Part shown: positions 1,177 through 52,986 of the stretch, piece by piece | Layout of the letters: each line of letters begins with the position of its first letter | How positions within the stretch are numbered: position 1 is the stretch's first letter | IMG/VR virus record: IMGVR_UViG_3300037504_000674 | Span: 28,753-92,752 of that record | Length of the DNA stretch: 64,000 nt | Source of the DNA: a virus | Direction: 5' to 3' (one strand) | Position numbers and translations under genes: made by a program | The notes under the pieces: model-generated | What the model was told of the DNA's origin: nothing | The model's database searches: none | What the model saw: only the letters and a program-made list of their open reading frames with translations

Positions 1177-2722
1177 TGACGAGTTATGGGAGTGGATACG
1201 GGATGCGTTAGGATTCAAGATGTCTCGCCACACCACGCACCCAGAGCATAAAACGCTATTCCAATTTATCGCCGATGCGTTTTTCGAGCGCGAGCCGATA
1301 CTACTAGCTAGAGGTAATCGGGGCGGCGGGAAAACGCGCGGCTACTCGATTTTCGAGACTGCCACCACAGTCTTCAAAGACCATTCATTCACTGTGCATG
1401 TAGGAGGTTCTGAGGGGCAAGCGAAGGACGGGTACGCATACTACGCAGGATCAAAAGCCAGGGATGGTGAGGACGGATTGATTCGCAAGCCATACTTCGC
1501 GAACCTACTAGACGAGGAGCCTATGGTGAGCAGAACAGTGCTCACCAACGGGGCTAAGCTAGAGATTCGAACTGGCGGCTCCGAGCGCGCTGTTTCGGGA
1601 CCGCACCCTCAAATTCTGGCGGTAGATGAGGTTGATCATATTGACCCGCAGACGCTCGCCACAGCCATGGAGATGCCCATGGATGGTCATGGATACAAGG
1701 CAACTACCCTTCTTGCGTCTAGTCAATACCACTCTTCCGGGACCATGCAGTCGTTTATCGATACGGCTGAAGAGCGGAATCTACCAGTGTATCAATTTGA
1801 CATCTTTGATACCATGCAGCCGTGCGGAAGAGAATACCCATCGGAATGCGGTGACTGCCCCCTACAATACTGGGTCAATCCATACACGAACAATCACGAG
1901 GAATTATGCACCGGGCGCGGGTCAAGAGCCGATGGGCACTACCCGTACACCAATGTAGTGAGTAAGTTCGTAAACGCAATTGACCCAGAGAAATGGGCTT
2001 TGCAAAACTTGCTTCTCAACGATCGCCAGCAGGGCCTGGTGTACCCGCAATACGATTCTGGGAACCAGCAATCGTTCCCGCCAAGCGGCGCCGATCTAAC
2101 GAAGTGGACCTGCTTTGCGGGTATCGACCAGCGGGGTAGAGGCAGAATTGTAGTTCTTGCTCAGGGGCCAGACGAATACTCTAATGGCAAAAAGCCAACT
2201 TGGGCCATAGCGGAATGGGCTGATGATAACAACACGCCCAGCAAGCTAATCCAAGCCGCAAAAGATATGTCGAGGCGCATTGTTGAAGAGTTCGGGTTAC
2301 ATATATCTGCGTTTTGGTCCGAGAGGGCAGCGGCGGACTTGATTAAAGACTGGCCCGCAGATATGGGCTGCTCAATCATTCCTAAGGAAGTGGCTAACGT
2401 GGCCTACGGCATTGGCGTGGTGAGGGACGCATTCAGGGATAACACCATGACACGCTCGTTATTCATTGATACCGAACGCTGCCCGAAATTACACCGGGCT
2501 ATAGCTAAAAAATACAAGTGCAAGCGTAATGCAGACGGATCATACAACCGAGATAGACCCGGCAAATCCGGCGAGGATTTCGCTGACACTCTCAGGTACG
2601 CCTATGTGGGTGGCGCAGGCAGATCGTATTTCCATCTACCAGAACCTGTCATATTGGGACCTCCGAGAGGCGCGTTCGGTAATCAAGAACGACATACGCA
2701 AAACAAATGGCGACCGTATTAA
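1070..2722 (+). CDS. terL: Terminase large subunit
   Basis: Walker A GNRGGGKT, Walker B ILAVDEVD, nuclease motifs AGID and EDFADTLRY; Cys-rich insert CGREYPSECGDCP. Confidence 0.9.
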   Translation: MQNSERSKILLQFYQDAQATLNQKLYQKALTRPKNDDELWEWIRDALGFKMSRHTTHPEHKTLFQFIADAFFEREPILLARGNRGGGKTRGYSIFETATTVFKDHSFTVHVGGSEGQAKDGYAYYAGSKARDGEDGLIRKPYFANLLDEEPMVSRTVLTNGAKLEIRTGGSERAVSGPHPQILAVDEVDHIDPQTLATAMEMPMDGHGYKATTLLASSQYHSSGTMQSFIDTAEERNLPVYQFDIFDTMQPCGREYPSECGDCPLQYWVNPYTNNHEELCTGRGSRADGHYPYTNVVSKFVNAIDPEKWALQNLLLNDRQQGLVYPQYDSGNQQSFPPSGADLTKWTCFAGIDQRGRGRIVVLAQGPDEYSNGKKPTWAIAEWADDNNTPSKLIQAAKDMSRRIVEEFGLHISAFWSERAAADLIKDWPADMGCSIIPKEVANVAYGIGVVRDAFRDNTMTRSLFIDTERCPKLHRAIAKKYKCKRNADGSYNRDRPGKSGEDFADTLRYAYVGGAGRSYFHLPEPVILGPPRGAFGNQERHTQNKWRPY

Positions 2723-8550: not shown

Positions 8551-8937
8551 ATGGCTAAGCAATACGAGGGATTTGACGTACCATTCACAGCCAAGGATGA
8601 TATGAGCAGCAAGCAATACTACTTCGTCCAAGTGGACGGCACCACAGATGATCAAGTAGACGTTTGCTCTGCCATCACAGACGTTATCCTTGGTATCACG
8701 CAAACTACCGGGACAACCGGCGCTGGCGTATCCGTTCGCGTCACTGGCCACAGCCAGCTTACGATGGGCGAGTCAGTGAATGCGGGTAGCTTGATCGGCA
8801 CTGACACTTCTGGTCGCGGCGTTGCGATAACGGCGGGATCGGACACTACTCAGTACGTGGCTGCACGCTGTGTAAAGGGCGCGGACACCAACGAGTTGGG
8901 CGAAGTTGTGCTAACACTCGGCGGGCGCGCCGCTTAA
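8551..8937 (+). CDS. Capsid cement/decoration protein (DUF2190-like)
   Basis: Small Gly/Thr/Val-rich protein between scaffold and capsid genes. Confidence 0.7.
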   Translation: MAKQYEGFDVPFTAKDDMSSKQYYFVQVDGTTDDQVDVCSAITDVILGITQTTGTTGAGVSVRVTGHSQLTMGESVNAGSLIGTDTSGRGVAITAGSDTTQYVAARCVKGADTNELGEVVLTLGGRAA

Positions 8938-8952
8938 TGAGGAGAGATAAAC

Positions 8953-9921
8953 ATGCCTAAGATTTTACCTAGCGCAAGAGACGTACATGTCAACAAGATG
9001 CTCACCAACGTATTGGTGGGCTACACCAACCAAGAATTCATCGCCGACGATATCTTCCCCGTCGTAATCGTCAATAAGCAGGCGGATGTCGTTCCTGCGG
9101 TGAAACAGAGCCACTTTTTCCGCAACGAAGCCGGCACGCCTCTTGGTGAGTCGGACACAGCGGCTGACGTTGGTTACGATGTTGATACCAGCGACACGTA
9201 TCACTGCCTACGCTACGGTACGCGCCACTTTATCAGCGACGACCGCCGCATCAACGAAGACAGCCCGTTTGACAGCGACCGCGACGCAACGATGCTGGTC
9301 ACCAACCAACTACGCCTACAACGCGAGGCGAGTTTTACATCCGACTTCTGGGCAACCAGCAAGTGGACAACGGACGTAACCGGCGGAACAACCGTGGACC
9401 AGTGGAGCGACTACGGAAGCTCGGCACCAATAGAGAATGTGCGCACGTATAAGCGCACCGTGCGCCGGCTCATTGGGCGCGATCCAAACCGCATGGTTCT
9501 GGGCGACTTGACATACGATCGGCTGGTAGACCACCCGGATGTACTTGAGCGCATTGCTGTAACGACAACCGGCATCGCCAACGAGGACTTGCTTGGCGCG
9601 CTGTTCGGTCTGGACATGCTGCTGGTCGGACGCACGATTTACACAACGGACGCCGAGGGTACATCAGAGTCTTCGGTTTCATACTCGGCTCACTGGGATG
9701 ACGACGCACTGCTGTACTACGCACCATCACAGCCATCATTGTGGACGCCGAGTGCGGGGTACACATTTGTATGGAATGTTGGTATGGGCAACAACATGGA
9801 GTGGGTCCGCAAGTACCGCCAAGAAGAGAAGCTCGGAGAGTACATCGAGGTTCGCTCGTACTACGACCAGAAGCAAATTGACGCCGACGCCGGGGTTTTC
9901 TTCTCGGATATCGTAGACTAG
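8953..9921 (+). CDS. Major capsid protein
   Basis: 322 aa; LTNV.VGY.N.EFIAD.IFP.V, PN.MVLG, PS...PSAGYT motifs; position; GAGGAG RBS. Confidence 0.88.
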   Translation: MPKILPSARDVHVNKMLTNVLVGYTNQEFIADDIFPVVIVNKQADVVPAVKQSHFFRNEAGTPLGESDTAADVGYDVDTSDTYHCLRYGTRHFISDDRRINEDSPFDSDRDATMLVTNQLRLQREASFTSDFWATSKWTTDVTGGTTVDQWSDYGSSAPIENVRTYKRTVRRLIGRDPNRMVLGDLTYDRLVDHPDVLERIAVTTTGIANEDLLGALFGLDMLLVGRTIYTTDAEGTSESSVSYSAHWDDDALLYYAPSQPSLWTPSAGYTFVWNVGMGNNMEWVRKYRQEEKLGEYIEVRSYYDQKQIDADAGVFFSDIVD

Positions 9922-9929
9922 GGGATATC

Positions 9930-10205
9930 ATGGGAGCACACACCGGGAAATACGTAGTTGCCAGAAAGAGCTTTGGATATGCTGGCAGACACCGGGATAT
10001 CGGTGAGGTGTTTAAGCTGAAAGGGATGCGCAACGACGACAAGATATGGGGCCTCGAAGTGAGCGGAAAGCCAAAGATGGCTCGTTATACGAGGCCGTTC
10101 AGAAAGGACCCCGGAGGATTGCCGAGGTGCGCCGAGTGCGGTGCATTCTTTATTAACCACACTGCCCTTTCGGCACATGGTAACAAAAGACACCAAGGAG
10201 ATTAA
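9930..10205 (+). CDS. Hypothetical protein with C2H2-type zinc finger
   Basis: CAECGAFFINHTALSAHGNKRH. Confidence 0.6.
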   Translation: MGAHTGKYVVARKSFGYAGRHRDIGEVFKLKGMRNDDKIWGLEVSGKPKMARYTRPFRKDPGGLPRCAECGAFFINHTALSAHGNKRHQGD

Positions 10206-10207
10206 GC

Positions 10208-10618
10208 ATGCCAAAGAAACAAAAAGGCAGAGTATGGCAGACGGGTGTCGTGTCTCCGGGGCCTACTTCTTCTTATCAACTCAACGTATCAAAGGCAACG
10301 CTAGATTACGGCGATACAACTTCAACCGATCTGTTCGTCATTCCCGCTAACGCAAACATAGCGCTGATTAACACAGACGTTGTGACGGCATTTAATGATA
10401 GCGGAACTGACGTAGTATACATCGGCAAAAGTGGGGCGACCACGCACTTCGTAAGCGCGCTGTCCGTAACAGCTACCGGCCAAACAGTCACCGGGTACTC
10501 AAATCTCGGAGACGTTGGGAGTTCTGATATTACGGTAGTCGGTCGCTACATCGGGCAAAACAGCGATGCCACAGCAGGCTCAGCAGACGTGTACATTCAA
10601 TGGTACCAAGATAAATAG
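10208..10618 (+). CDS. Putative minor virion protein
   Basis: Thr/Ser/Gly-rich beta protein at the end of the capsid operon; AAGGAG RBS. Confidence 0.55.
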   Translation: MPKKQKGRVWQTGVVSPGPTSSYQLNVSKATLDYGDTTSTDLFVIPANANIALINTDVVTAFNDSGTDVVYIGKSGATTHFVSALSVTATGQTVTGYSNLGDVGSSDITVVGRYIGQNSDATAGSADVYIQWYQDK

Positions 10619-43252: not shown

Positions 43253-43253
43253 G

Positions 43254-43326
43254 TCTGGAGGGCCGGACTCGAACCGGCGATCTCCGAGTCCCAAACCCGG
43301 CGCTGTACCAGCTCAGCTACCCCCAG
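43254..43326 (-). tRNA. tRNA-Pro(TGG)
   Basis: Cloverleaf; CCGGG-TT TGG GA-CTCGG. Confidence 0.9.
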
Positions 43327-43330
43327 ATAG

Positions 43331-43401
43331 AGGGATGCCTGGGATTTGAACCCAGTCTGTCGGTGCCACAAACCGATGTGCTACCGCTACACCAGCATCC
43401 C
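43331..43401 (-). tRNA. tRNA-His(GTG)
   Basis: TCGGT-TT GTG GC-ACCGA; no encoded G-1. Confidence 0.85.
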
Positions 43402-43405
43402 GCAA

Positions 43406-43478
43406 TACCCTCGCCAGGACTCGAACCTGGATTGACGGTTTAGGAAACCGTCGCTCTGTCCTATTGAGCTACGAGGGC
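43406..43478 (-). tRNA. tRNA-Arg(CCT)
   Basis: ACGGT-TT CCT AA-ACCGT. Confidence 0.9.
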
Positions 43479-43486
43479 TTCTGGTT

Positions 43487-43699
43487 TCACCAGATGTGCT
43501 CTCTGAAGAGATATTCAACCTCCTCCGGGTGATTCGTGTTTCCGCCAGCCAGCAATCTAATACCATTGCTGGCCTGATCGTCTAGCTCAACTATCTTGAC
43601 TGCGATATCCTTCACAGGCTTGCAGAATCCAACTATGCTCATGAGGATATAGCAGAGTGCTTTCAGGAATTGAATTTCCGACGCGCCTCGTTGTGCCAC
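43487..43699 (-). CDS. Small hypothetical protein within the tRNA array
   Basis: AAGGAGG RBS, GTG start, fills the gap between tRNAs. Confidence 0.55.
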   Translation of the reverse strand: MAQRGASEIQFLKALCYILMSIVGFCKPVKDIAVKIVELDDQASNGIRLLAGGNTNHPEEVEYLFREHIW

Positions 43700-43720
43700 A
43701 TCTACCTCCTTTATGTTCAG

Positions 43721-43793
43721 TAGGAGCGGCGGGATTTGAACCCGCGATATCAGGGTTGAAGGCCCTGCGGCTTGTCCGCTTGCCCACGCTCCC
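43721..43793 (-). tRNA. tRNA-Glu(TTC), atypical C33
   Basis: CAGGG-CC TTC AA-CCCTG; Glu-like D arm. Confidence 0.75.
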
Positions 43794-43797
43794 GCGA

Positions 43798-43870
43798 CAG
43801 GGGGAGTAGGGCTCGAACCTACGACCTTGGGCTTCAAAGGCCCTCGCTCTTCCAATTGAGCTATCCCCCT
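43798..43870 (-). tRNA. tRNA-Gln(TTG)
   Basis: GGGC-CT TTG AA-GCCC; A1-U72, G73. Confidence 0.8.
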
Positions 43871-43872
43871 AG

Positions 43873-43945
43873 TGTTCGGTGCAGGGCTTGAACCTGCGAC
43901 CTCTGGCGTGTAAAACCAGCGCTCTCCCAACTGAGCTAACCGAAC
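43873..43945 (-). tRNA. tRNA-Val(TAC)
   Basis: CTGGT-TT TAC AC-GCCAG. Confidence 0.9.
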
Positions 43946-43949
43946 TAAG

Positions 43950-44031
43950 TGGGGGCGGGAGGACTCGAACCTCCGAAGCTCTCACACCTGATTTACAGTC
44001 AGGCTCCTTTGCCGCTCGGATACACGCCCCC
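43950..44031 (-). tRNA. tRNA-Tyr(GTA)
   Basis: CCTGA-CT GTA AA-TCAGG, long variable region; 5' end uncertain by 2 nt. Confidence 0.85.
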
Positions 44032-44034
44032 AAT

Positions 44035-44107
44035 GGCTGGCGGGAGGACTCGAACCTCCATAGGGCGCCTTACAAGGACGCTGCTTAATCCATTCAGCCA
44101 CGCCAGC
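44035..44107 (-). tRNA. tRNA-Thr(TGT)
   Basis: GCGTC-CT TGT AA-GGCGC. Confidence 0.85.
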
Positions 44108-44110
44108 TTA

Positions 44111-44182
44111 TTCCCGCTCCTGGAATTGAACCAGGCACCCCCGCGTTATCAGCACGGCGCTCTACCGATGAGCTAAGCGGGA
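44111..44182 (-). tRNA. tRNA-Ile(GAT)
   Basis: CCGTG-CT GAT AA-CGCGG. Confidence 0.85.
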
Positions 44183-44187
44183 CAAAG

Positions 44188-44260
44188 TGGATCAGGCAGG
44201 ACTCGAACCTGCAACCCACTCGTTATGAGCAAGTCGCTCTAACCGTTGAGCTACTGATCC
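44188..44260 (-). tRNA. tRNA-Met/Ile2(CAT), elongator type
   Basis: ACTTG-CT CAT AA-CGAGT. Confidence 0.85.
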
Positions 44261-44265
44261 AAAGG

Positions 44266-44350
44266 CGGAGAAGACAGGAATCGAACCTGTAGGGCTGTCA
44301 CACCTGACGCTTTTCAAGAGCGCTTGACTCACCACACTGTCCACTTCTCC
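44266..44350 (-). tRNA. tRNA-Ser(TGA)
   Basis: GCGCT-CT TGA AA-AGCGT, long variable arm, G73. Confidence 0.85.
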
Positions 44351-44354
44351 GTAG

Positions 44355-44426
44355 AGGCAACGGTCGGAATCGAACCGACGAAATGCGCATTTGCAGTGCG
44401 CCGCCTTGCCACTTGGCTACGTCGCC
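44355..44426 (-). tRNA. tRNA-Cys(GCA)
   Basis: GCGCA-CT GCA AA-TGCGC, U73. Confidence 0.9.
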
Positions 44427-44472
44427 AACTTGTGCTTCTTGCATCCACAGGACATTATTCTCATTCAGCTCC

Positions 44473-44694
44473 TCAGTGGTCGTAGTCCGCGTGCTCCGCG
44501 CCGCACTGCGGGTATTCGTACTGGCAATCTGCCAACTCGTCTGGCTCCGGGCACTCGCCGTTTAGATACACCGGGCACGTGCAGCCGCACCCTCCGTCCA
44601 TCCCGATATGAAAACACGGATCGCCCGTGATCATATGGTGAATCGGCCCGATGTTTGTCATATCGTTGATTGGCTCTCCATTGTATTTAAACAT
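44473..44694 (-). CDS. Small Cys/His-rich protein
   Basis: GGAGG RBS; C...GGCGCTCPV...GEC. Confidence 0.55.
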   Translation of the reverse strand: MFKYNGEPINDMTNIGPIHHMITGDPCFHIGMDGGCGCTCPVYLNGECPEPDELADCQYEYPQCGAEHADYDH

Positions 44695-44706
44695 GCTCCC
44701 TCCAAT

Positions 44707-44793
44707 GTAGCGGGTCGCCGTGCCCACCCCCACCGAATTGCCGTCTTTCCGGCTTTCAGTAGGGTGGTACTTAATGCACTTGATGAGCCCTAC
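44707..44793 (-). ncRNA. Unassigned rod-shaped structured RNA in the tRNA array
   Basis: Nested pairings GTAG/CTAC, GTGC/GCAC, CCACCC/GGGTGG, TACTGAA/TTCGGTG, GCCG-GAAAGA-CGGC. Confidence 0.35.
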
Positions 44794-44797
44794 GCAG

Positions 44798-44885
44798 CGG
44801 AGAAGGCGGGAATCGAACCCGCAGGCCTATTACAGACCACTCGTTTAGCAAACGAGCGTGCCGAACCAATATGCACCTCAACTCC
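44798..44885 (-). tRNA. tRNA-Ser(GCT)
   Basis: CTCGT-TT GCT AA-ACGAG, long variable arm; imperfect acceptor stem. Confidence 0.8.
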
Positions 44886-44886
44886 A

Positions 44887-44961
44887 TGGCGGGGATAACG
44901 GGAATCGAACCCGTGTCTTCTGTTCGACAGACAGATATTCTTGCCGCTGAACTATATCCCC
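44887..44961 (-). tRNA. tRNA-Asp(GTC)
   Basis: TCTGT-CT GTC GA-ACAGA; encoded GCCA end. Confidence 0.9.
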
Positions 44962-44962
44962 A

Positions 44963-45033
44963 TGAGCGCAGAGAGACTCGAACTCCCATTTGCTGATTAA
45001 GAGTCAGCTACTCTACCGTTGAGTTATGCGCCC
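44963..45033 (-). tRNA. tRNA-Lys(CTT)
   Basis: GCTGA-CT CTT AA-TCAGC. Confidence 0.88.
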
Positions 45034-45037
45034 GCTG

Positions 45038-45110
45038 TGCCGCCTCTCGGAATCGAACCGAGGACCCCCGGCTCTTCAGGCCGATGCTCTACCAACTGAG
45101 CTAAAGCGGC
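45038..45110 (-). tRNA. tRNA-Phe(GAA)
   Basis: TCGGC-CT GAA GA-GCCGG. Confidence 0.9.
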
Positions 45111-45114
45111 GGAG

Positions 45115-45187
45115 CTCCCAGGGCAGGACTCGAACCTGCACACCTCCGGTTAACAGCCGGACACTCTGCCAATTGAGCTACCTGGGA
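45115..45187 (-). tRNA. tRNA-Asn(GTT)
   Basis: TCCGG-CT GTT AA-CCGGA. Confidence 0.9.
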
Positions 45188-45781
45188 TTATGGTCTCACC
45201 ACTTGGCGGTACGGCTGTCGCCAATTGTCCGTGGTGTTTGGCGATATGAATTCTATCGCCCCTTGCCTTCGCTTTCTAGTAACACCTAGCCCAGAGCGCT
45301 TGATTACGTCATCTACGAACAGCCCCGGCTTAGTGATAGCGTGTGTGTATGATAGCGTGTGGACCTGGATGTCCGCTTCGTCTAACCTGACAACAAACCT
45401 GGATATCCGGTCGCATGTTAGCCTGAGCTCCCCCATGAACGGAGCACTTCGGTCGCCAATCCTCCTCTGCGTTACAGAGACAGGGTCCTTGAGTATTGCG
45501 AAGAATATAGGGTTTCTGAGAATGCGGTTAAGCCTTCTCAGGTGAGCATGAGCGCCGACATGCTTAAATCCCCACACGTCGTGGTCAGCGTTACGTCGCT
45601 GCACTAGCGCTTGCAATTCTTCGTCAGAACCCTTGAGAGCCCACCTTATTTCCTGGTCTTCCCAGGACATTCTGAGATAATCATCGCCAACCATCGGGAC
45701 GCCAAGTTGCTCAAATATACCTGTGAGCATCGTGGTGCCCGAATGTGCAAAACCACATACAACTACCGTTTTTTTGTCCAT
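45188..45781 (-). CDS. Sulfotransferase-family (P-loop) protein
   Basis: VVVCGFAHSGTTML (5'-PSB loop), LGV.M, WGFK, LKDP.SV; the longer listed ORF overlaps tRNA-fMet. Confidence 0.7.
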   Translation of the reverse strand: MDKKTVVVCGFAHSGTTMLTGIFEQLGVPMVGDDYLRMSWEDQEIRWALKGSDEELQALVQRRNADHDVWGFKHVGAHAHLRRLNRILRNPIFFAILKDPVSVTQRRIGDRSAPFMGELRLTCDRISRFVVRLDEADIQVHTLSYTHAITKPGLFVDDVIKRSGLGVTRKRRQGAIEFISPNTTDNWRQPYRQVVRP

Positions 45782-45783
45782 AG

Positions 45784-45855
45784 TTGCGGGAGCCGGATTT
45801 GAACCGGCGACCTTCGGGTTATGGGCCCGGCGAGCTACCACTGCTCCATCCCGCA
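45784..45855 (-). tRNA. Initiator-type tRNA-fMet(CAT), C33
   Basis: GGG/CCC anticodon stem, fMet-like body, loop CC CAT AA. Confidence 0.88.
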
Positions 45856-45856
45856 G

Positions 45857-45928
45857 CAAGTGTGACTGGACTCGAACCAGTATCGCCGGTGTTGGAGACC
45901 GGTGCTTTTCCAGTTAAGCTACACACTC
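45857..45928 (-). tRNA. tRNA-Trp(CCA)
   Basis: CCGGT-CT CCA AC-ACCGG. Confidence 0.88.
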
Positions 45929-45932
45929 CCAG

Positions 45933-46005
45933 TGGATGTGGCGGGATTTGAACCCGCGACCTCCTCCGTGCAAGAGAGGCGCGCTCCCATCTGCGCTACA
46001 CACCC
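45933..46005 (-). tRNA. tRNA-Ala(TGC)
   Basis: CCTCT-CT TGC AC-GGAGG; G3:U70. Confidence 0.92.
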
Positions 46006-46009
46006 AAGT

Positions 46010-46173
46010 TATCAGCAGAGAGCGAGGGGCAGGACTCGAACCTGCAACCGCAGCCTGTCAACTGCGTAGGCGCCCAGGAAATCCAAGTGACAGCTTGGAC
46101 GCCTGCGGATACACCTCTCGGCTCACATAGGAGCCTTAGCCTCGCTCTGTGGCAGCCCTCGCTCTCTACTGAC
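46010..46173 (-). ncRNA. tRNA-like structured ncRNA (T-arm, long closing stem, kissing loops; manA-like candidate)
   Basis: GCAGG-TTCGAGT-CCTGC; 18-bp terminal stem; complementary loops CTGTCA/TGACAG. Confidence 0.65.
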
Positions 46174-46179
46174 AATCAG

Positions 46180-46250
46180 GGCGGGTGAGGGGGATCGAAC
46201 CCCTATCATTGGCTTGGAAGGCCAAGGCCCTACCGTTGGACTACACCCGC
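46180..46250 (-). tRNA. tRNA-Gly(TCC)
   Basis: TTGGC-CT TCC AA-GCCAA. Confidence 0.88.
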
Positions 46251-46253
46251 ACA

Positions 46254-46324
46254 TACGGGCAGCCGGACTTGAACCGGCATCTTCAGCATGGCAAGCTGAC
46301 GTTCTACCGTTGAACTACGCCCGT
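46254..46324 (-). tRNA. tRNA-Gly(GCC)
   Basis: TCAGC-TT GCC AT-GCTGA. Confidence 0.88.
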
Positions 46325-46335
46325 TAAAACCGGTG

Positions 46336-46479
46336 TTAAGCCGATTCGCCATTGAGATAATGCACACGCTCGGCGGCCTCCTCCGGCGTATTCCAGTCGC
46401 TTTCTGGGAACCATTTCCCAGTTGGGTCATAAAACCCGACCGTCCATAGACCCGGCTCAGATCGAATATACACGTACAT
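46336..46479 (-). CDS. Small phage protein (47 aa, MYVYIRSEPGLWTVGFYDPTGKWFPESD...AAERVHYLNG)
   Basis: Read manually; AAGGAGG RBS; own promoter. Confidence 0.7.
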   Translation of the reverse strand: MYVYIRSEPGLWTVGFYDPTGKWFPESDWNTPEEAAERVHYLNGESA

Positions 46480-46515
46480 CTATTGCCTCCTTCGCCTCGT
46501 TTGGCATCCTAGTGT

Positions 46516-46543
46516 ATTATATCACGTTGTTGTTAACTATCAA
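46516..46543 (-). promoter_or_regulatory. Sigma70-type promoter TTGATA-N16-TATAAT (second half of the tRNA array)
   Basis: Near-consensus, extended TG. Confidence 0.65.
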
Positions 46544-46576
46544 CTGACATGCATCACGTCACAAGCGTGACATACG

Positions 46577-47059
46577 TCAAACCTCAAGATATACTTTCCA
46601 ACTCTTGGGTATTCTTCCTCTTGCCACCAGATAGTCAACCCTGGGTGTTTTTGGTTCCCACATGAGCTTCATACCGGCCTCATGTGGGGTGCGGTCTGCT
46701 TTACGCTGATTGCACTCGTAGCATGAGCAAATCGTGTTACCCCATGTGCTCTTGCCGCCGTGCGATACCGGGACCACATGGTCAATCGTTCGGCCCGGCC
46801 TACCGCAGTACCCGCATGTATAATCATCGCGCTTGATCACACCGCGACGTGTCCATCTCGCGTTTCGTCTGGGTACATTTACATAGTGTTTAAGCCGGAT
46901 AACCTCCGGCACATCAAAACAACCGGACACAGTTTTGAAGCTGCGTGCCAGATCGTCGGTTACACCATGCGCAACATTCTTCCAGAGCAGCGTGGCCGCT
47001 TTGCGGTCCGACACCACGCGCAACGGCTCGTAACTTGCATTAAGCAATAGAACTGACAT
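46577..47059 (-). CDS. HNH endonuclease (McrA-like, VLLLNASYEPL family)
   Basis: RD.YTC.YCG...TIDHVVP.S.GG...W.N...C..CN..K. Confidence 0.9.
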   Translation of the reverse strand: MSVLLLNASYEPLRVVSDRKAATLLWKNVAHGVTDDLARSFKTVSGCFDVPEVIRLKHYVNVPRRNARWTRRGVIKRDDYTCGYCGRPGRTIDHVVPVSHGGKSTWGNTICSCYECNQRKADRTPHEAGMKLMWEPKTPRVDYLVARGRIPKSWKVYLEV

Positions 47060-47071
47060 TTTTTCTCCTAG

Positions 47072-47145
47072 TGAGGGTGGCAGGATTTGAACCTGCGGTC
47101 CTTGGCTTAAAAGGCCACTGCTCTACCAGGCTGAGCTACACCCCC
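47072..47145 (-). tRNA. tRNA-Lys(TTT)
   Basis: TGGC-CT TTT AA-GCCA. Confidence 0.88.
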
Positions 47146-47150
47146 AAACA

Positions 47151-47231
47151 TGGCGATAGAGGGAGTCGAACCCTCATGCTTTCGCGGTGCATTTTAACTG
47201 CCCTGTGTATGCCTGCTTCCACCATATCGCC
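47151..47231 (-). tRNA. tRNA-Leu(TAA) copy 1 (imperfect anticodon stem)
   Basis: GGGCA-GT TAA AA-TGCAC, variable arm GC-GAAA-GC. Confidence 0.75.
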
Positions 47232-47235
47232 TTAG

Positions 47236-47317
47236 TCTCGCCGCAGGGAGTCGAACCCTGATAGTCACTAGGACACTGGTTTTAAACCAGCCGCGTAGCC
47301 ATTTCCGCCACGGCGAG
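47236..47317 (-). tRNA. tRNA-Leu(TAA) copy 2
   Basis: GCTGG-TT TAA AA-CCAGT, long variable arm. Confidence 0.8.
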
Positions 47318-47324
47318 GTGAATC

Positions 47325-48179
47325 TTAACTGCGCTCTTGGCAATGAACCCTTAAGTGTTTCTTTATTGCGTTGTCAGACACGCCAAGTTCTCTTCCCAAA
47401 GCAGAGTAGTTGCTTTCATCAAGTCTTTGTCTAAGTTCTTCGCAGGAGGGCCAATCTATCTTGAAGTTAGCCCGATGCTTTCCGGCGCATGGCTTGCACC
47501 TCGTCGCGTTACATGATATTTTTGCGCCGCAGTCCACACAATACTTCTGCTCTGATCCTCTTTTTATCTGCAAGCCATTTTTTGCCATCAGCTTGTATGC
47601 CCTGTTGTATGTTGCGCCTATGGAGAGACCTACCGAGAGCAACGCCTGCCTAATGCTATCTTCTTCCCTGAGCGCTCTCAACAATTCCTCATCACTAACT
47701 ACAGCATTTGACTTGTTCTTGCCACAATAAGTAGGTGTTTGGGAGTGGCAGTTTGGGCACAAGAATCTTAGGTTCGACAACCTATGATCTCTGCGTCTTC
47801 CATTCACATGATCTAGTTGAAGAACAAGCTCTTCCCCCATCCACTTCCCGTCATTTCCGCAAATATCGCACGCATATGGAATTAGCCCTTCTTTTATAAT
47901 AATTTCTTTGATAGTGTTGCGCGGCGTCTTCGAGCCTTTACAGAACTTTTCGTCTGGCGAGGCTCCTATTCTTTCATCAGAGTATGAGGTTTTCCCAAGC
48001 GCCCACCCCTGCCCAAGAAAGTGATCAGTCTGTATCCCCAAATTTTCTATTCTGTCCCTTACAAGAGCGTGACTCCCGCTGCCCTTTAGTCCAAGCTTCT
48101 TTCTTACAGAAGCATAAGACTCAGATGTTTTACATGCCTCTATCAATTGATCATCTGTCCAACTTCTTCTTCTGCTCAC
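47325..48179 (-). CDS. Free-standing HNH homing endonuclease with HTH/zinc-finger modules
   Basis: CDICG...LQLDHVNG...D.RLSNLRFLCPNCHSQT; CVDCG...CKPC; LGVSDNAIKK; GTG start at 48179 inferred. Confidence 0.85.
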   Translation of the reverse strand: MSRRRSWTDDQLIEACKTSESYASVRKKLGLKGSGSHALVRDRIENLGIQTDHFLGQGWALGKTSYSDERIGASPDEKFCKGSKTPRNTIKEIIIKEGLIPYACDICGNDGKWMGEELVLQLDHVNGRRRDHRLSNLRFLCPNCHSQTPTYCGKNKSNAVVSDEELLRALREEDSIRQALLSVGLSIGATYNRAYKLMAKNGLQIKRGSEQKYCVDCGAKISCNATRCKPCAGKHRANFKIDWPSCEELRQRLDESNYSALGRELGVSDNAIKKHLRVHCQERS

Positions 48180-48268
48180 TTTTCCCCCTATTAGGAAACT
48201 AAAGGGGCTATCTTGGTGAATAGGCACCAAGAAGGGCCGTCGCCTTTTCGCCCCGATTGACAACAGTG

Positions 48269-48722
48269 CTGGTGGTTTCCGCATTTCCTTCGACCACCGA
48301 CGCAGCGCATCATTTTCTTCTCTTAGGTATTTCCATTTCCCGTCATCTGGGCTTAGTGCGTAGGAATCCAATGCCCCCAGCTAGTTCTTTTGCGCGGAAG
48401 CCAGTCATTAGTGCGCTGGCGGCGCTCAAGCTCTGCACGCCATCGCTGCCACCCCGATCTCCGATAAACCTTGAGCAGCATGTCCGCGAAAACTGGGTAA
48501 GGGTCATCGGGCCAGCTATAGTATTGCGTTAAGTCTATACTGCGATACGCCTCAGACAGCTCATGCGTCCAGGGGTAGCACATAACCCGCCCAATCAACC
48601 TTTGGCGCAGCCGCTCGTCGGTAAGCCATAGCGGATTTACATCGTTGCTGCTAATCAGGTGCCCGCACTGGTGGTTTCCGCATTTCCTTCGACCACCAAC
48701 GCAGCGCATCATTTTCTTCTCT
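48269..48722. repeat. 55-bp direct repeat (48269-48323 and 48668-48722, 1 mismatch)
   Basis: CTGGTGGTTTCCGCATTTCCTTCGACCACC(G/A)ACGCAGCGCATCATTTTCTTCTCT. Confidence 0.9.
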
Positions 48723-48916
48723 ACGCCCTCGACGAATGGGCACAGCCAGCCATCATGCCATGAAACAGAGAGCGGGCCAAAATCACCCCACAATTTACGT
48801 GCCGACTCGCCAAGAGTGGGGTAGCAGTAGTATTCTTTTGGCTCCATCCACTTCACTTTGCGACCGTAGCGGTTCTTTATCCAAAGCCCTTTACGGGTCC
48901 GGCGCTCCATTTTCAC
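48353..48916 (-). CDS. Hypothetical protein
   Basis: GGAGG RBS right after tRNA-Arg. Confidence 0.5.
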   Translation of the reverse strand: MKMERRTRKGLWIKNRYGRKVKWMEPKEYYCYPTLGESARKLWGDFGPLSVSWHDGWLCPFVEGVEKKMMRCVGGRRKCGNHQCGHLISSNDVNPLWLTDERLRQRLIGRVMCYPWTHELSEAYRSIDLTQYYSWPDDPYPVFADMLLKVYRRSGWQRWRAELERRQRTNDWLPRKRTSWGHWIPTH

Positions 48917-48929
48917 TTTTGCCTCCAGG

Positions 48930-49002
48930 CTCCCCCGTCAGGACTCGAACCTGAATCACCCACTCCGCAGGCGGGCACTCTATCCAATTGAGCTACAGGG
49001 GA
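48930..49002 (-). tRNA. tRNA-Arg(GCG)
   Basis: CCCGC-CT GCG GA-GTGGG; Arg-type D loop GGATA. Confidence 0.85.
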
Positions 49003-49003
49003 A

Positions 49004-49075
49004 TGCGAGCAGGGAGAGTCGAACTCCCGTCTGCGGCTTGAGAGGCCGCTATCCTTCCCGCTAGACGATGCTCGC
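49004..49075 (-). tRNA. tRNA-Glu(CTC)
   Basis: GCGGC-CT CTC AA-GCCGC. Confidence 0.88.
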
Positions 49076-49078
49076 TAG

Positions 49079-49202
49079 TGGAGATGGCCGGAATCGAACC
49101 GGCGTCCGCAATGCGTACATGCTCCTCGCCGCAAGTTTGTTCTCCGCGCTTTTCTCTTGCTAGAAACATGCCTGTAGCACCACGTCTAATCCGATCATCC
49201 CC
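49079..49202 (-). ncRNA. ssrA: Miniature tmRNA-like RNA (124 nt)
   Basis: 5' GGGGATGATCGGATTAGAC; 3' GGACGCCGGTTCGATTCCGGCCATCTCCA; G3:U70; no D-stem; long helix 2; no pseudoknot ring. Confidence 0.8.
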
Positions 49203-49204
49203 AA

Positions 49205-49292
49205 TGCGGGCGGGGGGAGTCGAACCCCCACCAAGGTTCAACCTTGTACCTGGCGCCTAAGACCAGAGCATCTGCCATTCTGCCACGCCCGC
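49205..49292 (-). tRNA. tRNA-Leu(TAG)
   Basis: CTGGT-CT TAG GC-GCCAG, long variable arm. Confidence 0.88.
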
Positions 49293-49298
49293 TTGATC

Positions 49299-49326
49299 AT
49301 TATACTGCTTTTGCCGAACTTGTCAA
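49299..49326 (-). promoter_or_regulatory. Sigma70-type promoter TTGACA-N16-TATAAT heading the RNA island
   Basis: Perfect hexamers; predicted +1 coincides with the 5' G of tRNA-Leu. Confidence 0.75.
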
Positions 49327-49368
49327 AACCTTAAGGGGGAGGGTTTTGACGCCCTCCCCGCAGTGGCT

Positions 49369-49734
49369 CTACAGCTCTTCAATCATCGCCTGAATCTCTT
49401 CGGGCGACAACTCTTCAAGCTGCTGTTCTTGCTTGCGCTCTAGCACTTCTAGTAACTGCCGCTTCTTGGCGGCACGTGCAGCCTCGTTCTTGGCTTGCTG
49501 CCGCTCTTCCAGCTTGACACCGACAATGTGCTTGATGATGCCGATCTTCAACTGCAAGACATCATCCTGCTTACCCTCAGAAAGAAGGCTGTCTTGTTGC
49601 TGTTCCCTTGCGACTCGATTAAGGTTTTGGTAAATGCTGTCCAGAGCCTCACAGCTCAAGTCCCAAAGGTCCTCTGCGCACAGAGAACCGCGATACTGCC
49701 ACCGTAACTTCAAACGCAGCGCCTCTTCAAACAT
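49369..49734 (-). CDS. Conserved phage coiled-coil protein (MFE.A.RLKLR...EDLWDL)
   Basis: Recalled phage family usually adjacent to the upstream large gene. Confidence 0.7.
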   Translation of the reverse strand: MFEEALRLKLRWQYRGSLCAEDLWDLSCEALDSIYQNLNRVAREQQQDSLLSEGKQDDVLQLKIGIIKHIVGVKLEERQQAKNEAARAAKKRQLLEVLERKQEQQLEELSPEEIQAMIEEL

Positions 49735-49744
49735 TTTGTCCCCC

Positions 49745-51781
49745 TTAGTTGAAAACGACTTTGACAATACGATTACCGTTGATCCTCGCCACAATGTAAT
49801 TATCTCTTGTGGCGCTGAATCCTACGCCGGAAAGTTGCTCGTCATCATCCTCTACCCGCATCTTATTGCCAAGCGCTGCAAAAATGCGCTTGTGCTTCAT
49901 CAATTCTTCTGGAAGATACTCGTTGAAGAAGCCGCTTGGCCTTTCGTCGTTCTTGGTACCAGGAATCATGAATAAGTAGTGCCGGTGCCCAATGTGATTA
50001 TCACCCCAGTAGTTTGGCGAGTAACACACCAACGACACTCGATGGAACCGATTGGTATCCAGGCCCCAGACCTCGCGGCTGCTGTCCGATGTAGGCAGAG
50101 ACTTGATGAAGCGGATACCGCGCTGTCTATCGAACTCGATTTTGGCGACAAGCACCTGCCCCTTGTGCGGTATATCCTTGCGGTATTCAAACTCGAATAC
50201 CTGACCATTATACTCGATCTCCGCAGAAAAGCCAGATCGCCCACCCCGATGCTGATAGTTTTTGACAAACAGCTTATAAACACCGGGTTGCATGAGGCTA
50301 GGGTCAGACCAGGTGATATTTTCTACTGCCACCTGTCTAACCTTTGGGTGAATGATGTCTACGTCAAGAACACCAGAAGACGGATGTGTTTGTCGTTTGT
50401 TGGGAAAGTAGATGTGGTTTCCGTCGGGCTCGATGCAATGCGCGTCATAGTCATTACGGTTGTCAAATTCTTCATTCCATTGCAACGAGAACCTCAGAAC
50501 GCCCTTGACGTTCCCGCCAGCCGCCTTGACCCGGCGCTTCATATCCGAGTCCGCCATGTTACCAGAGTATGCCCAAGTAAATCCATTGCTCCACTTTGTC
50601 AGTGGCTTGCTATCGGTTGCTTGTGGAGCAATCAAAGAGACGAGGTTAGCTGCGTGCCGATTCTCAAGCAGAACCTCGATCTTGGCGGATTCCGGGATGA
50701 CATTGTCGATGAATTCCTGAGCACCTACCGCTGCGACATCACGGAACTTGCGCGGGTTGACAGTTTCTTCATCCCTTAAAACATCGAATACACCCCCGCT
50801 GCCCGCCATGTGCGGCATCGCATCTCGGTCGGCGAACAGCACGTCATTCACGGTAACGTCTCTGAGGTGAGCAAACCTACGCGGCAGAGCGCTCGTGACC
50901 CCCAGCCTCTCCGCATCCTCTTCGGCTTCGTCAACCATCTTGCGTGTATAGATGGCTTTAGGCCGCTTATAGTTATGCGGCGCGACGATGTTCTCGTAAC
51001 GACGCACGGATTCGATAACGTCCTTGCCATCTGAGATGTCAGCGAGCAGGACGCCGATAGAGTGATTGCGTAACCTAGTCAGCGCGCCGCCAGCCTCGGC
51101 GGCCTGCTTCCAACAGAAGTTTGTCTTCTGATTTTCTGGTAGTTCCGAGTATTCGTGTTGCAACACGCGGAACCTACTCAGGAGCCCGCGCCACTCCTCG
51201 CCCTTATACAGATTGCCCTCCTCAATGAGATCGAGGATAGTCTCGATCGCGTAGGGGTCAATCTCTTCTAGCGAGCGTTCAAAGACGTGCCGTGAGTCTC
51301 TGATGGTGGCCTGGAACTCGCTTGCGGTTTGGTGATCTGGGACCACCAAATGATCTGGCAGCTCGACATAGAAGTGGTGCCATGTATGAACATCGCCACT
51401 CTCAAGCATTTCCCGGTTTGCGTTAGTGCCAATCTTCGCCAGCTTAGAGGCAAAGGTGTTGGCCACCGGATTACTCTTGACGTACTCTGATAGGGCATCG
51501 ATGACTGGCTGGTAAACCTCGTCAGCCTCGAAGTCCCACACCGACACAAGTTCGTTATCAACGATGGCGACCACGTCGCCGAACTTCTTGATGAAGTGGC
51601 GGCAGCACGAACAATCAAATGCCCTGCGTTCGCGGTAGATGCCGTTGACGCCTTCCGGGAAGCTGTCTAGGTACAACTCCCAGAGCTGCTCGTGATCTAC
51701 ATCTGTCACGAACAACACAGACTCGGATGACATCGAATCGAAATGCTCTTGGAACAACGCCTTGAATTCTTTGAATTGCAT
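49745..51781 (-). CDS. Large conserved phage protein with CSCC motif and YfaP/DUF2135-like domain
   Basis: FDCSCCRHF; LRFSLQW...DYD.H..EP.G...LDVD...AVENITW. Confidence 0.75.
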   Translation of the reverse strand: MQFKEFKALFQEHFDSMSSESVLFVTDVDHEQLWELYLDSFPEGVNGIYRERRAFDCSCCRHFIKKFGDVVAIVDNELVSVWDFEADEVYQPVIDALSEYVKSNPVANTFASKLAKIGTNANREMLESGDVHTWHHFYVELPDHLVVPDHQTASEFQATIRDSRHVFERSLEEIDPYAIETILDLIEEGNLYKGEEWRGLLSRFRVLQHEYSELPENQKTNFCWKQAAEAGGALTRLRNHSIGVLLADISDGKDVIESVRRYENIVAPHNYKRPKAIYTRKMVDEAEEDAERLGVTSALPRRFAHLRDVTVNDVLFADRDAMPHMAGSGGVFDVLRDEETVNPRKFRDVAAVGAQEFIDNVIPESAKIEVLLENRHAANLVSLIAPQATDSKPLTKWSNGFTWAYSGNMADSDMKRRVKAAGGNVKGVLRFSLQWNEEFDNRNDYDAHCIEPDGNHIYFPNKRQTHPSSGVLDVDIIHPKVRQVAVENITWSDPSLMQPGVYKLFVKNYQHRGGRSGFSAEIEYNGQVFEFEYRKDIPHKGQVLVAKIEFDRQRGIRFIKSLPTSDSSREVWGLDTNRFHRVSLVCYSPNYWGDNHIGHRHYLFMIPGTKNDERPSGFFNEYLPEELMKHKRIFAALGNKMRVEDDDEQLSGVGFSATRDNYIVARINGNRIVKVVFN

Positions 51782-51818
51782 TGGTTTATCCTTTCGGCTA
51801 TAGAAAAGTTTCCAAATA

Positions 51819-52235
51819 TCACCGCATCTCAGCAAGGGCGTCATACATGGCCGTAACAAGCGTGGGCGCCCACCCGATCGCTAGTCTTTTAGTGTGCCCC
51901 CTCAGCACCCATCGCCCAAGCTCTGCGCTATATCTGAACCAGACATTGTGTCTGGTGAGCAACCGCTCCATCTCGTCTGCCACGAACCGATGCAGAAAAA
52001 CTTCCGCATCGTGGCAATAACTAAACTCCGTGGGTGTATACCACGGGCTTCCGCATAGCGCAAGGGCGTCGTCTATCAACATGTTGGAATACTCAATCGA
52101 TTTTCCATCGACGGCTTTAACGAACAGCGTGTGGTCGTAGTGTCTGAAGTAGCGAACAATGGCGTCAGCGTGTTTGTTGTCCAGGCGTCTCCTTTCCTCT
52201 TCTGTCATTTGATCTTTGTTCAGTTCGCTCAACAT
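51819..52235 (-). CDS. Hypothetical protein, paralog of 57085..57753
   Basis: Shared LF..A..GKS..Y.NML.DD..AL.GSP......F.YC. Confidence 0.7.
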   Translation of the reverse strand: MLSELNKDQMTEEERRRLDNKHADAIVRYFRHYDHTLFVKAVDGKSIEYSNMLIDDALALCGSPWYTPTEFSYCHDAEVFLHRFVADEMERLLTRHNVWFRYSAELGRWVLRGHTKRLAIGWAPTLVTAMYDALAEMR

Positions 52236-52238
52236 TTT

Positions 52239-52469
52239 TTATCCTCCAGTGGTGGTTAGTATCATGGCTTTGTTGACATCATCCTCTTCAGCAAGTGATA
52301 GAACTCGCCTAGCGCACTCCAAGTATTGTTGTTTGGTGACGCCTTGGGCGGACAAGATAATGTGAGAAGGAATGATGGATCGGTTAAGGGATAGAAACTC
52401 TGCTGCACCCCGCGCGCTTCTGCCACGCCGGGCAGTCGCCGCAGCCTGGCGCTGGCTTCGTGGGGTCAC
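52239..52469 (-). CDS. Hypothetical protein
   Basis: Fills the operon gap. Confidence 0.4.
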   Translation of the reverse strand: MTPRSQRQAAATARRGRSARGAAEFLSLNRSIIPSHIILSAQGVTKQQYLECARRVLSLAEEDDVNKAMILTTTGG

Positions 52470-52486
52470 GGGTCGTGCGCGTCGTT

Positions 52487-52879
52487 TTACTGCTCGTCAT
52501 CGGGTACCTCTAATTTAACCGTCTTCGGCGCAACGTGGTCGCGCCACTCCAACAGCGCCGTGCGATCGTCGTGCTCGCTAACATCTATGCGCTCTTGGAG
52601 AAGGTCGTCGCAGTACGCTTGCACCTCTGCGCGGATTCCGTCAATCTCGTCTGCGCCATGATACTGAATCACCACAGCGCCTAGATCGTGGAGATTGCGT
52701 AGCATAAAAGACGAACAGGAGGCATCAAGCGTAATCGCCGTATAATATCGACCGTGGCGTAATTTACCCCGCCATTCCTCGAACCCGTGAATTGGTCGCG
52801 GTGCGTTAAACACTATTGCGTCTTTTGGTACACCCTCAGGTCGTGGTGAGAATGTGTGGACAATCTCAAATTCTGGCAT
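52487..52879 (-). CDS. Hypothetical protein
   Basis: AGGAG RBS. Confidence 0.6.
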   Translation of the reverse strand: MPEFEIVHTFSPRPEGVPKDAIVFNAPRPIHGFEEWRGKLRHGRYYTAITLDASCSSFMLRNLHDLGAVVIQYHGADEIDGIRAEVQAYCDDLLQERIDVSEHDDRTALLEWRDHVAPKTVKLEVPDDEQ

Positions 52880-52912
52880 TGTTCTCTCCTAGTCTAGTTG
52901 AATACACTTCAA

Positions 52913-52986
52913 TGCCCCCACCAGGACTCGAACCTGGAACCCACTAATTAGAAGTTAGTGGCACTATCCACTTGTGCTATGGGGGC
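52913..52986 (-). tRNA. tRNA-Arg(TCT), isolated
   Basis: ACTAA-CT TCT AA-TTAGT. Confidence 0.9.

Follow-up and report, generated by a model that had tools for sequence, protein, structure and literature searches.

The 64,000-nt stretch analysed here (hereafter the window; positions 28,753 to 92,752 of the IMG/VR virus record IMGVR_UViG_3300037504_000674) carries, at 49079-49202 on the minus strand, a phage gene for a miniature transfer-messenger RNA (tmRNA) without a coding sequence (CDS), which our analysis confirms as genuine. Read directly from the sequence, the gene comprises 124 nt from G1 to the discriminator A (the A73 equivalent), and its 3' end does not encode CCA but has CTA instead. 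The Rfam tmRNA model RF00023 matches 49076-49202 with 68.6 bits (gathering score 47; E = 1.4e-24 for the window), in an alignment that spans model positions 1-374 and skips 276 inner positions, with 33 nt in their place. Under the same model the top-scoring ordinary tRNA of the phage genome reaches 34.4 bits, and tmRNA was kept over tRNA for this site in the Rfam clan competition. An earlier note, written from the letters of the window alone, had described a real miniature tmRNA with a TLD (tRNA-like domain) and a single helix, free of pseudoknots and squeezed between a tRNA-Leu and a tRNA-Glu, and this description stands. Of the two kinds of program it had pointed to, the covariance model recognises the RNA while the gene caller does not: ARAGORN, run on the window, found 29 tRNAs and called neither a tRNA nor a tmRNA at 49079-49202.

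The TLD is complete, with a 7-bp acceptor stem, the alanine identity pair G3:U70, the discriminator A73, a T arm and an analogue of the D-loop that has no stem, all of which the earlier note had read correctly. On the minus strand, the 5' strand of the acceptor stem, GGGGATG (49196-49202; from sequence and family alignment), contains G3, and its 3' strand, CATCTCC, contains U70 and is followed by the discriminator A (49079-49086; from sequence). The D-loop analogue ATCGGATTAGAC (49184-49195) is of the tmRNA type GG..TT.GAC, and a GGAC junction adjoins the T arm GCCGG-TTCGATT-CCGGC (49087-49107), both being evident from the sequence and the RF00023 alignment. Between these ends lies one interrupted helix of about 22 bp, made of nucleotides 20-26/89-95, 32-41/77-86 and 43-47/68-72 in RNA numbering. 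Its basal part, P2a, pairs GTGGTGC (49177-49183; sequence, fold and covariation) with GCATTGC (49108-49114; sequence and covariation); P2b pairs GCATGTTTCT (49162-49171; sequence, fold and covariation) with AGGAGCATGT (49117-49126; sequence, covariation and a strain variant); and an apical helix pairs GCAAG (49156-49160) with CTTGC (49131-49135), both strands being supported by sequence and covariation. As had been claimed, this helix is closed by a purine-rich loop of 20 nt, AGAAAAGCGCGGAGAACAAA (49136-49155), in which 17 nucleotides are purines and which contains a motif common to part of the family described below (GAAAAGC/GAAAAGGCC). The fold is more stable than that of shuffled sequences (z-score -2.56), and both the RF00023 alignment and the fold show that the pseudoknot ring PK1-PK4 and helix 5 of a standard tmRNA are absent.

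Other identities for this RNA were considered and rejected. It is not a tRNA-Ala, as the helix of about 22 bp and the 20-nt loop replace the D stem and the anticodon arm; the phage has a separate tRNA-Ala at 45932-46005. Nor is it a two-piece or permuted tmRNA, since the gene is collinear and the tmRNA_permuted model reaches 31.6 bits against a cut-off of 47; this match (48945-49106) falls mostly on the downstream tRNAs and was the sole other tmRNA-type match in the Rfam scan of the region, which gave no mitochondrial-tmRNA match. A small H-type pseudoknot in the stub could form here through a 3-bp CGC/GCG pairing, in which the C75U change of the strain variant would leave a G.U pair, and it was dropped after inspection by eye of a few other family members (e.g., L122) showed no equivalent, no systematic search having been run.

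The stretch is present in four metagenome runs from tidal flats, and two of these cover the mini-tmRNA; no RNA data set was listed among the runs. A 3046-nt contig of one run, possibly the source sample, is identical, and a 358-nt contig from another sample of another study covers 48948-49305, which takes in part of tRNA-Leu, the whole mini-tmRNA and tRNA-Glu, and differs there by ten substitutions but no indel; the two remaining runs cover only the adjacent tRNAs or regions elsewhere in the stretch. The 124-nt form is thus not an assembly deletion, because the second contig crosses it without indels. Of the six substitutions within the mini-tmRNA, five are unpaired (G58U, A63G, C64A, G73A and C75U) and the sixth, A80G, turns the U38-A80 pair of P2b into U.G, so that pairing is retained; the TLD is unchanged. 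This substitution pattern is that of a structured RNA gene.

To place the RNA in a wider context, we searched with a pattern that set tmRNA 5' and 3' elements 60-90 nt apart and left the 3' acceptor strand unspecified. The pattern matched 27 stretches on metagenome contigs and 10 on genome contigs; on IMG/VR contigs a first, strict scan gave no match and a looser pattern found 2 stretches besides the one described here, while a blastn search of 50,697 phage records with the region returned no match. The metagenomes yielded 25 distinct RNAs of 109-137 nt, and further ones came from genomes. A covariance model built solely from the window RNA and the structure proposed in the earlier note recovers every RNA gathered with the pattern and in total matches 33 other RNAs (80-138 nt) at 29-68 bits, which stem from metagenomes, viral contigs and metagenome-assembled genomes (MAGs) of Chloroflexota and the candidate phyla radiation (CPR) and include an RNA of Mycobacterium phage DS6A. 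The top matches are L118 (67.8 bits), from a viral contig of 46 kb in IMG/VR, and L119 (65.4 bits).

Across the resulting alignment of 34 RNAs, standard pairs fill 94.2% of the cells compared to 65.4% after shuffling and 43-56% once the partners are slid, double-sided changes occur in 28 of 34 pairs, and the covariation score is 0.46 versus 0.11; since the alignment was fitted to the model these figures lean towards the structure, yet the slid controls are still far lower. Covariation is found at acceptor pairs 5 and 6, at all 7 pairs of P2a and at 4 of 5 T-stem pairs, and all 5 pairs of the apical helix show double changes across the family. G3:U70 is present in every one of the 34 RNAs even though the search pattern had left the 3' acceptor strand free, and A73 is present in nearly all. 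Constrained folds of the members follow a common plan of TLD, P2a, P2b, an apical helix of 4-6 bp and a loop of about 15-20 nt. The loop motif GAA(R)GGC[CG] or GAAAAGC (GAAAAGGCC-like) recurs at the same relative position in 14 of 34 members where 1.5 would be expected, a count that is descriptive as the motif was defined after viewing the sequences.

Some members also lie within tRNA arrays (L098 with 10 tRNAs, L123 with 4 tRNAs) and others are found on IMG/VR viral contigs. Five of the 10 genome matches are Chloroflexota MAGs (G053-G057; minis of 119-133 nt), each of which also has a canonical tmRNA of 366-424 nt, with G057 having three minis. The same coexistence is seen in 3 of 4 further MAGs, i.e., Uhrbacteria and one Saccharibacteria (both CPR) and one uncultured bacterium; in a 0.6-Mb Saccharibacteria MAG (G191) a mini is the sole tmRNA-like match, which proves nothing as this MAG is probably incomplete. 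In an Anaerolineales MAG (L125, 4349-4468, minus strand), the mini lies among genes for glutamyl-tRNA synthetase, an ATP-binding cassette transporter ATPase, a short-chain dehydrogenase/reductase and a major facilitator superfamily transporter and adjoins an HNH endonuclease gene. We rejected the idea that it is a conserved cellular gene of Anaerolineae, as only 1 of 101 genomes of this class, the starting genome itself, has it; the minis thus occur sporadically and give the impression of cargo that is mobile or derived from phages. Other features of these contigs were recorded in passing. A 133-nt mini from Saccharibacteria (L105, 11654-11787, minus strand; the same RNA in L110 and L127), which is also the one found in G191, has an alanyl-tRNA synthetase gene (8721-10442, minus strand) about 1.2 kb away. 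The contig of L130 and L132 (G193:C2, 6709-20051) holds a 342-nt full-length tmRNA and two minis of 112-113 nt within 14 kb and may be a phage or island carrying both tmRNA forms. ARAGORN extends L098 and L129 to 261-319 nt by using an upstream 5' end.

The virus record as a whole is 92.7 kb long and about 84% complete. Among its products are a Phage_cap_E-type capsid protein, HNH endonucleases and members of PHROG families without known function. The 29 tRNA genes that ARAGORN found in the window form a cluster at 43253-52986. Within it, and all on the minus strand, a sigma-70-type promoter (TTGACA-16 nt-TATAAT, 49299-49326), which agrees with the consensus at 12 of 12 positions, lies 6 nt upstream of tRNA-Leu(TAG) (49205-49292); this gene is separated by 2 nt from the mini-tmRNA, which is followed after 3 nt by tRNA-Glu(CTC) (49004-49075) and then by tRNA-Arg(GCG) (48928-49002) as the final RNA gene. 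With the promoter directly upstream of them, these four RNA genes look like one transcription unit. The earlier note had seen no smpB in the window, and this extends to the whole 92.7-kb record, which also has no gene for a CCA-adding enzyme, an RF-1/ArfB domain or peptidyl-tRNA hydrolase (Pth), so that any activity of the RNA must rely on host factors.

Beyond this unit, the tRNA array is near a full decoding set and contains duplicates (two genes each for tRNA-Met(CAT), Gly, Lys, Ser and Glu, and three for Arg) as well as an adjacent tRNA-Leu(TAA) pair that is unlike in score (47151-47231 and 47235-47317, minus strand; 39.5 and 50.8 bits). Two HNH endonuclease genes inside the cluster (46577-47059 and 47325-48371, both on the minus strand) stand between tRNA blocks as typical homing-endonuclease cargo. 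Just upstream of the transcription unit, a gene at 49745-51859 (minus strand) encodes a 704-aa protein that belongs to PF26675 (precomputed hits) and phrog_1735 and has no assigned function. It shows at least 24 invariant columns rich in Trp, Cys and His, has more than 3000 full-length homologues at 50% identity or above, and its family is among the most widespread uncharacterised phage protein families that we encountered.

The boldest element of the earlier note was a peptide tag. The letters were read correctly: at 49127-49147 on the minus strand, GCG GAG AAC AAA CTT GCG GCG spells AENKLAA and is followed by AGG, without any stop codon in this frame. However, no stop codon interrupts any of the three frames between the apical loop and the 3' end, and a stop-less frame therefore carries no information. 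Among 5000 dinucleotide shuffles of the 76-nt core, 6.9% contain LAA in some frame and 2.6% a run that starts with Ala and ends in LAA. LAA is absent from all of 25 related mini-tmRNAs, and the frames that follow the loop motif in these relatives share no common length, stop or ending, about half of them being stop-less as expected by chance. The note had looked to homologues for joint conservation of the helix and the LAA frame; the helix does covary, but the frame is not conserved. Even between strains the LAA end is not kept, as the substitutions of the second sample turn AENKLAA into AERKLAV. By comparison, canonical tmRNAs recovered alongside the minis end in ..LAMAA*, ..AFAA*, ..PMAA* and ..AVAA*, and an mRNA-like domain of this kind, with a resume codon, a short frame, a hydrophobic ..AA ending and an in-frame stop, is not present in the mini-tmRNA. 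The ssrA degron acts via a free C-terminal ..LAA, and an internal LAA is no degron for ClpXP/SspB. With no stop, the LAA would be internal here, and a translating ribosome would enter the strands of P2 and the T arm and stall again at the 3' end.

We thus find the AENKLAA frame unsupported as a functional feature. Minimal trans-translation—with the ribosome resuming on the apical loop at GCG and adding AENKLAA and what follows as a phage-specific tag—would draw on the purine-rich stretch with A at -4 that precedes a GCN codon, an arrangement seen as GAAAAG|GCC in many family members, and on ARAGORN, which calls the 133-nt members L131 (5824-5956, plus strand) and L134 (3819-3951, minus strand) tmRNAs with the tag AFNAT*. 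The latter calls also illustrate that automatic annotation can present such minis as tagged tmRNAs. Set against the missing stop, the internal position of LAA and the lack of conservation, and given that a 20-nt loop closed by about 22 bp would probably be very short for threading through the mRNA channel, we regard such tagging as very improbable. For this locus, the result is a correction of an attractive idea.

A second question is whether the RNA could be the decaying remnant of a full-length phage tmRNA that lost its interior by recent deletion and its function with it. The family of the 704-aa neighbour is so widespread (3095 matches) that it makes a poor kinship marker. In 51 IMG/VR records with a homologue of this protein we found three full-length tmRNAs (G001, G021 and G048) and no mini, and these three phages are distant, with 39-54% identity in this single protein. 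Among relatives by capsid protein, 33 IMG/VR records (mostly fragments) contain no tmRNA-like gene; closer ones, with capsids of 60-67% identity, sit on contigs of more than 100 kb (P0009, P0027 and P0036), and one capsid homologue lies on a contig of a Dehalococcoidia MAG. The latter and the 5 of 10 genome matches in Chloroflexota MAGs are weak hints towards Chloroflexota as host. The full-length tmRNAs of phages that share this neighbour-gene family would fit a remnant, as would the clustering of the second sample's substitutions in the middle of the RNA. Yet the same 124-nt length recurs in two samples with changes that preserve structure, the unit has a perfect promoter, and independent deletions would not give rise to so varied a set of similarly sized RNAs in which P2 and the apical helix covary strongly. 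The earlier note had allowed that a full-length tmRNA in relatives might betray such an event; the one relative to consider in this regard, G001, is distant, and its tmRNA is at most a candidate orthologue of the mini-tmRNA. Nothing that we found indicates a recent deletion, and we consider a decaying remnant improbable. The tmRNA of G001 (IMGVR_UViG_3300027896_000041) is unusual in its own right: it lies at about 1246-1879 (minus strand) of L012, corresponding to about 2124-2757 of G001:C1, has a tag of roughly DNNQYKMAA*, and its T-loop is broken after GGTTCAATC by about 243 nt, with the missing CCCCTCACCTCCACCA found 621 nt from the 5' end. It resembles the intron form already known for tmRNA and lies on a phage contig, but no Rfam match to a group I intron was found in it.

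What, then, might the mini-tmRNA do? As no terminated tag can be supplied, it is most likely a competitor of host tmRNA for SmpB and stalled ribosomes, a reading to which we assign a probability of roughly 60%, and would probably disturb ribosome rescue in the host by this means. Interference through sequestration of SmpB was also among the suggestions of the earlier note; as a reading it is the best supported one. What the data show is the gene with its fold, its pattern of conservation, its promoter and the lack of a conserved frame; the mechanism is inferred. In such a scheme the RNA would be transcribed with three tRNAs from their own consensus promoter, released from the tRNA transcript by RNase P and 3' trimming and furnished with CCA by the host; host alanyl-tRNA synthetase would charge it with alanine via G3:U70 and A73, host SmpB would bind the TLD, and the complex would compete with host tmRNA and inhibit it. 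Nascent phage proteins and messages might in this way escape ssrA tagging and the coupled decay by RNase R during infection. Several observations weigh against this reading. Titration of SmpB needs a TLD only, as in the 83-nt RNA of DS6A, and leaves the long P2 helix and the recurring A-rich loop motif, followed by an alanine codon, unexplained. We found no syntenic orthologue and no tmRNA-like gene among the capsid relatives, so that lineage-specific conservation rests on one strain variant. Finally, the minis occur beside canonical tmRNAs in five Chloroflexota MAGs and 3 of 4 further MAGs, and if these are cellular genes they fit poorly with a plain inhibitor aimed at the host.

Tag-free rescue is the main alternative, in which the alanylated mini-tmRNA would enter the stalled ribosome together with SmpB and accept the nascent chain, which would then be released independently of a stop codon, either by host ArfB or ArfA-RF2 or through drop-off and Pth, with the proteins not marked for degradation and ribosomes stalled on cleaved messages recycled during infection. 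The intact alanine identity set speaks for it in that a pure sponge would not need charging, and so does the heavy investment of this phage in translation, with its 29 tRNA genes. As quoted in PMC4131195, inhibition of tmRNA by such a molecule was described as occurring "whether or not chargeable" (Mao 2009), and mitochondrial tmRNAs that lack a CDS are conserved with SmpB and thought to help with incomplete mRNAs (PMC11915505). On the other hand, the A site would be empty again after transfer to an RNA that consists of a TLD only, release would depend wholly on host factors given that the record encodes no release factor-like, ArfB or Pth protein, and experiments in bacteria or phages offer no precedent; on balance we consider this alternative rather unlikely. 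We think it quite unlikely that the RNA has another target altogether, whether it serves to signal processing of the tRNA transcript or to engage, as decoy or ligand, host RNases or defence proteins with affinity for tRNA or tmRNA, such as RNase R. The phage protein AcrIIIA1 does use tRNA and tmRNA fragments (about 90 nt), which bind RNase R and Cas10-Csm (PMC11662646), but no AcrIIIA1-like partner was identified here, processing sites 2-3 nt away already exist in the tRNAs on either side, and the GG..TT.GAC D-loop, the GGAC junction, G3:U70 and a tmRNA-model score double that reached by tRNAs exceed what a cleavage signal would need. Both the strictly retained alanine identity set and the elaborate stub favour entry into the ribosome in some form over action as a mere sponge. 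We raise, tentatively and as a reading that we consider rather unlikely, that the long-form mini-tmRNAs of 110-138 nt may be a distinct functional class and not stripped-down sponges: their conserved P2 helix and A-rich loop (GAAAAGGCC-like, an A-run and then an alanine codon) might imitate the resume region, so that together with SmpB they could enter stalled ribosomes, where they would block trans-translation as the frame is being set or else perform tag-free rescue. If true, phages, and sporadically cells, would encode in these RNAs a regulator of ribosome rescue that has a mechanism of its own.

Phage tRNA arrays are usually read as devices for codon supply or anti-defence. The presence of a tmRNA mimic among the tRNA genes suggests that the host pathway of ribosome rescue and protein tagging is a further phage target, and a compact natural 124-nt inhibitor of trans-translation, or alternative to it, would help to probe how SmpB and tmRNA work.

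This kind of molecule is not without precedent. Hudson, Lau & Williams (2014; PMC4131195) recorded a "TLD only" tmRNA of Mycobacterium phage DS6A; the work of Mao et al. (2009), as cited there, is quoted as showing that a molecule of this type strongly inhibits tmRNA whether it can be charged or not, perhaps by titrating SmpB, and a remark in PMC11915505 likewise has the DS6A form inhibiting endogenous tmRNA in E. coli. The 2025 tmRNA database described in the latter paper lists nine sequences as "Standard, no CDS", that of DS6A being one of them, and covers mitochondrial and plastid tmRNAs without CDS. The earlier note had overlooked the DS6A precedent and consequently overrated the novelty of its find. 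Our analysis assembles 33 further mini-tmRNA-like sequences (DS6A's among them) with their common fold, covariation and recurring loop motif; gathered from viral contigs and from Chloroflexota and CPR MAGs that mostly have a normal tmRNA too, they show that tmRNAs without CDS are commoner and more structured than the literature indicates.

We located the DS6A RNA at JN698994 28478-28560 (tmRNA Website tmID 11587), where it measures 83 nt and scores 43.2 bits with RF00023, below the cut-off; the model built from the window RNA finds it with 29.1 bits (E = 3e-5), a score that comes mostly from the TLD, and the stubs are unlike in length. Both RNAs are phage-borne and of one piece, have an intact TLD with G3:U70 and A73, lack pseudoknots, a terminated tag frame and an encoded CCA, and are expected to depend on host SmpB and alanyl-tRNA synthetase. 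In contrast to the short stub of the DS6A RNA, the window RNA (124 nt, 68.6 bits) retains a P2 helix of about 22 bp with an apical hairpin and an A-rich loop motif that is common to a subfamily. DS6A is a temperate actinophage whose RNA is not annotated in a tRNA array, whereas the window RNA belongs to the 29-tRNA cluster of an uncultured tidal-flat phage.

Canonical one-piece tmRNAs are also known from phages, e.g., the mycobacteriophage Bxz1 group and Bacillus phage G, and we came across a 369-nt tmRNA within 9 tRNAs (L096). With canonical tmRNA as modelled by RF00023, the window RNA shares the sequence and structure of the TLD, the P2 helix, the presumed dependence on SmpB and the siting among phage tRNA genes, yet it is devoid of PK1-PK4 and helix 5 (276 of 374 model positions) and of a tag frame ending in ..AA and a stop, while the canonical copies that we recovered end in MAA*, FAA* or VAA*. 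Organellar tmRNAs without CDS—those of jakobid and oomycete mitochondria (RF02544) and the form of about 65 bp in Mallomonadaceae plastids—resemble it in having little beyond the TLD and no tag frame, and they are presumed to act with SmpB without tagging (PMC11915505), but the mitochondrial forms are permuted two-piece genes of organelles, and the window RNA, with its long P2, is encoded by a phage in one piece. The window RNA is thus a further tmRNA without CDS, in a longer and more structured form than that of DS6A.

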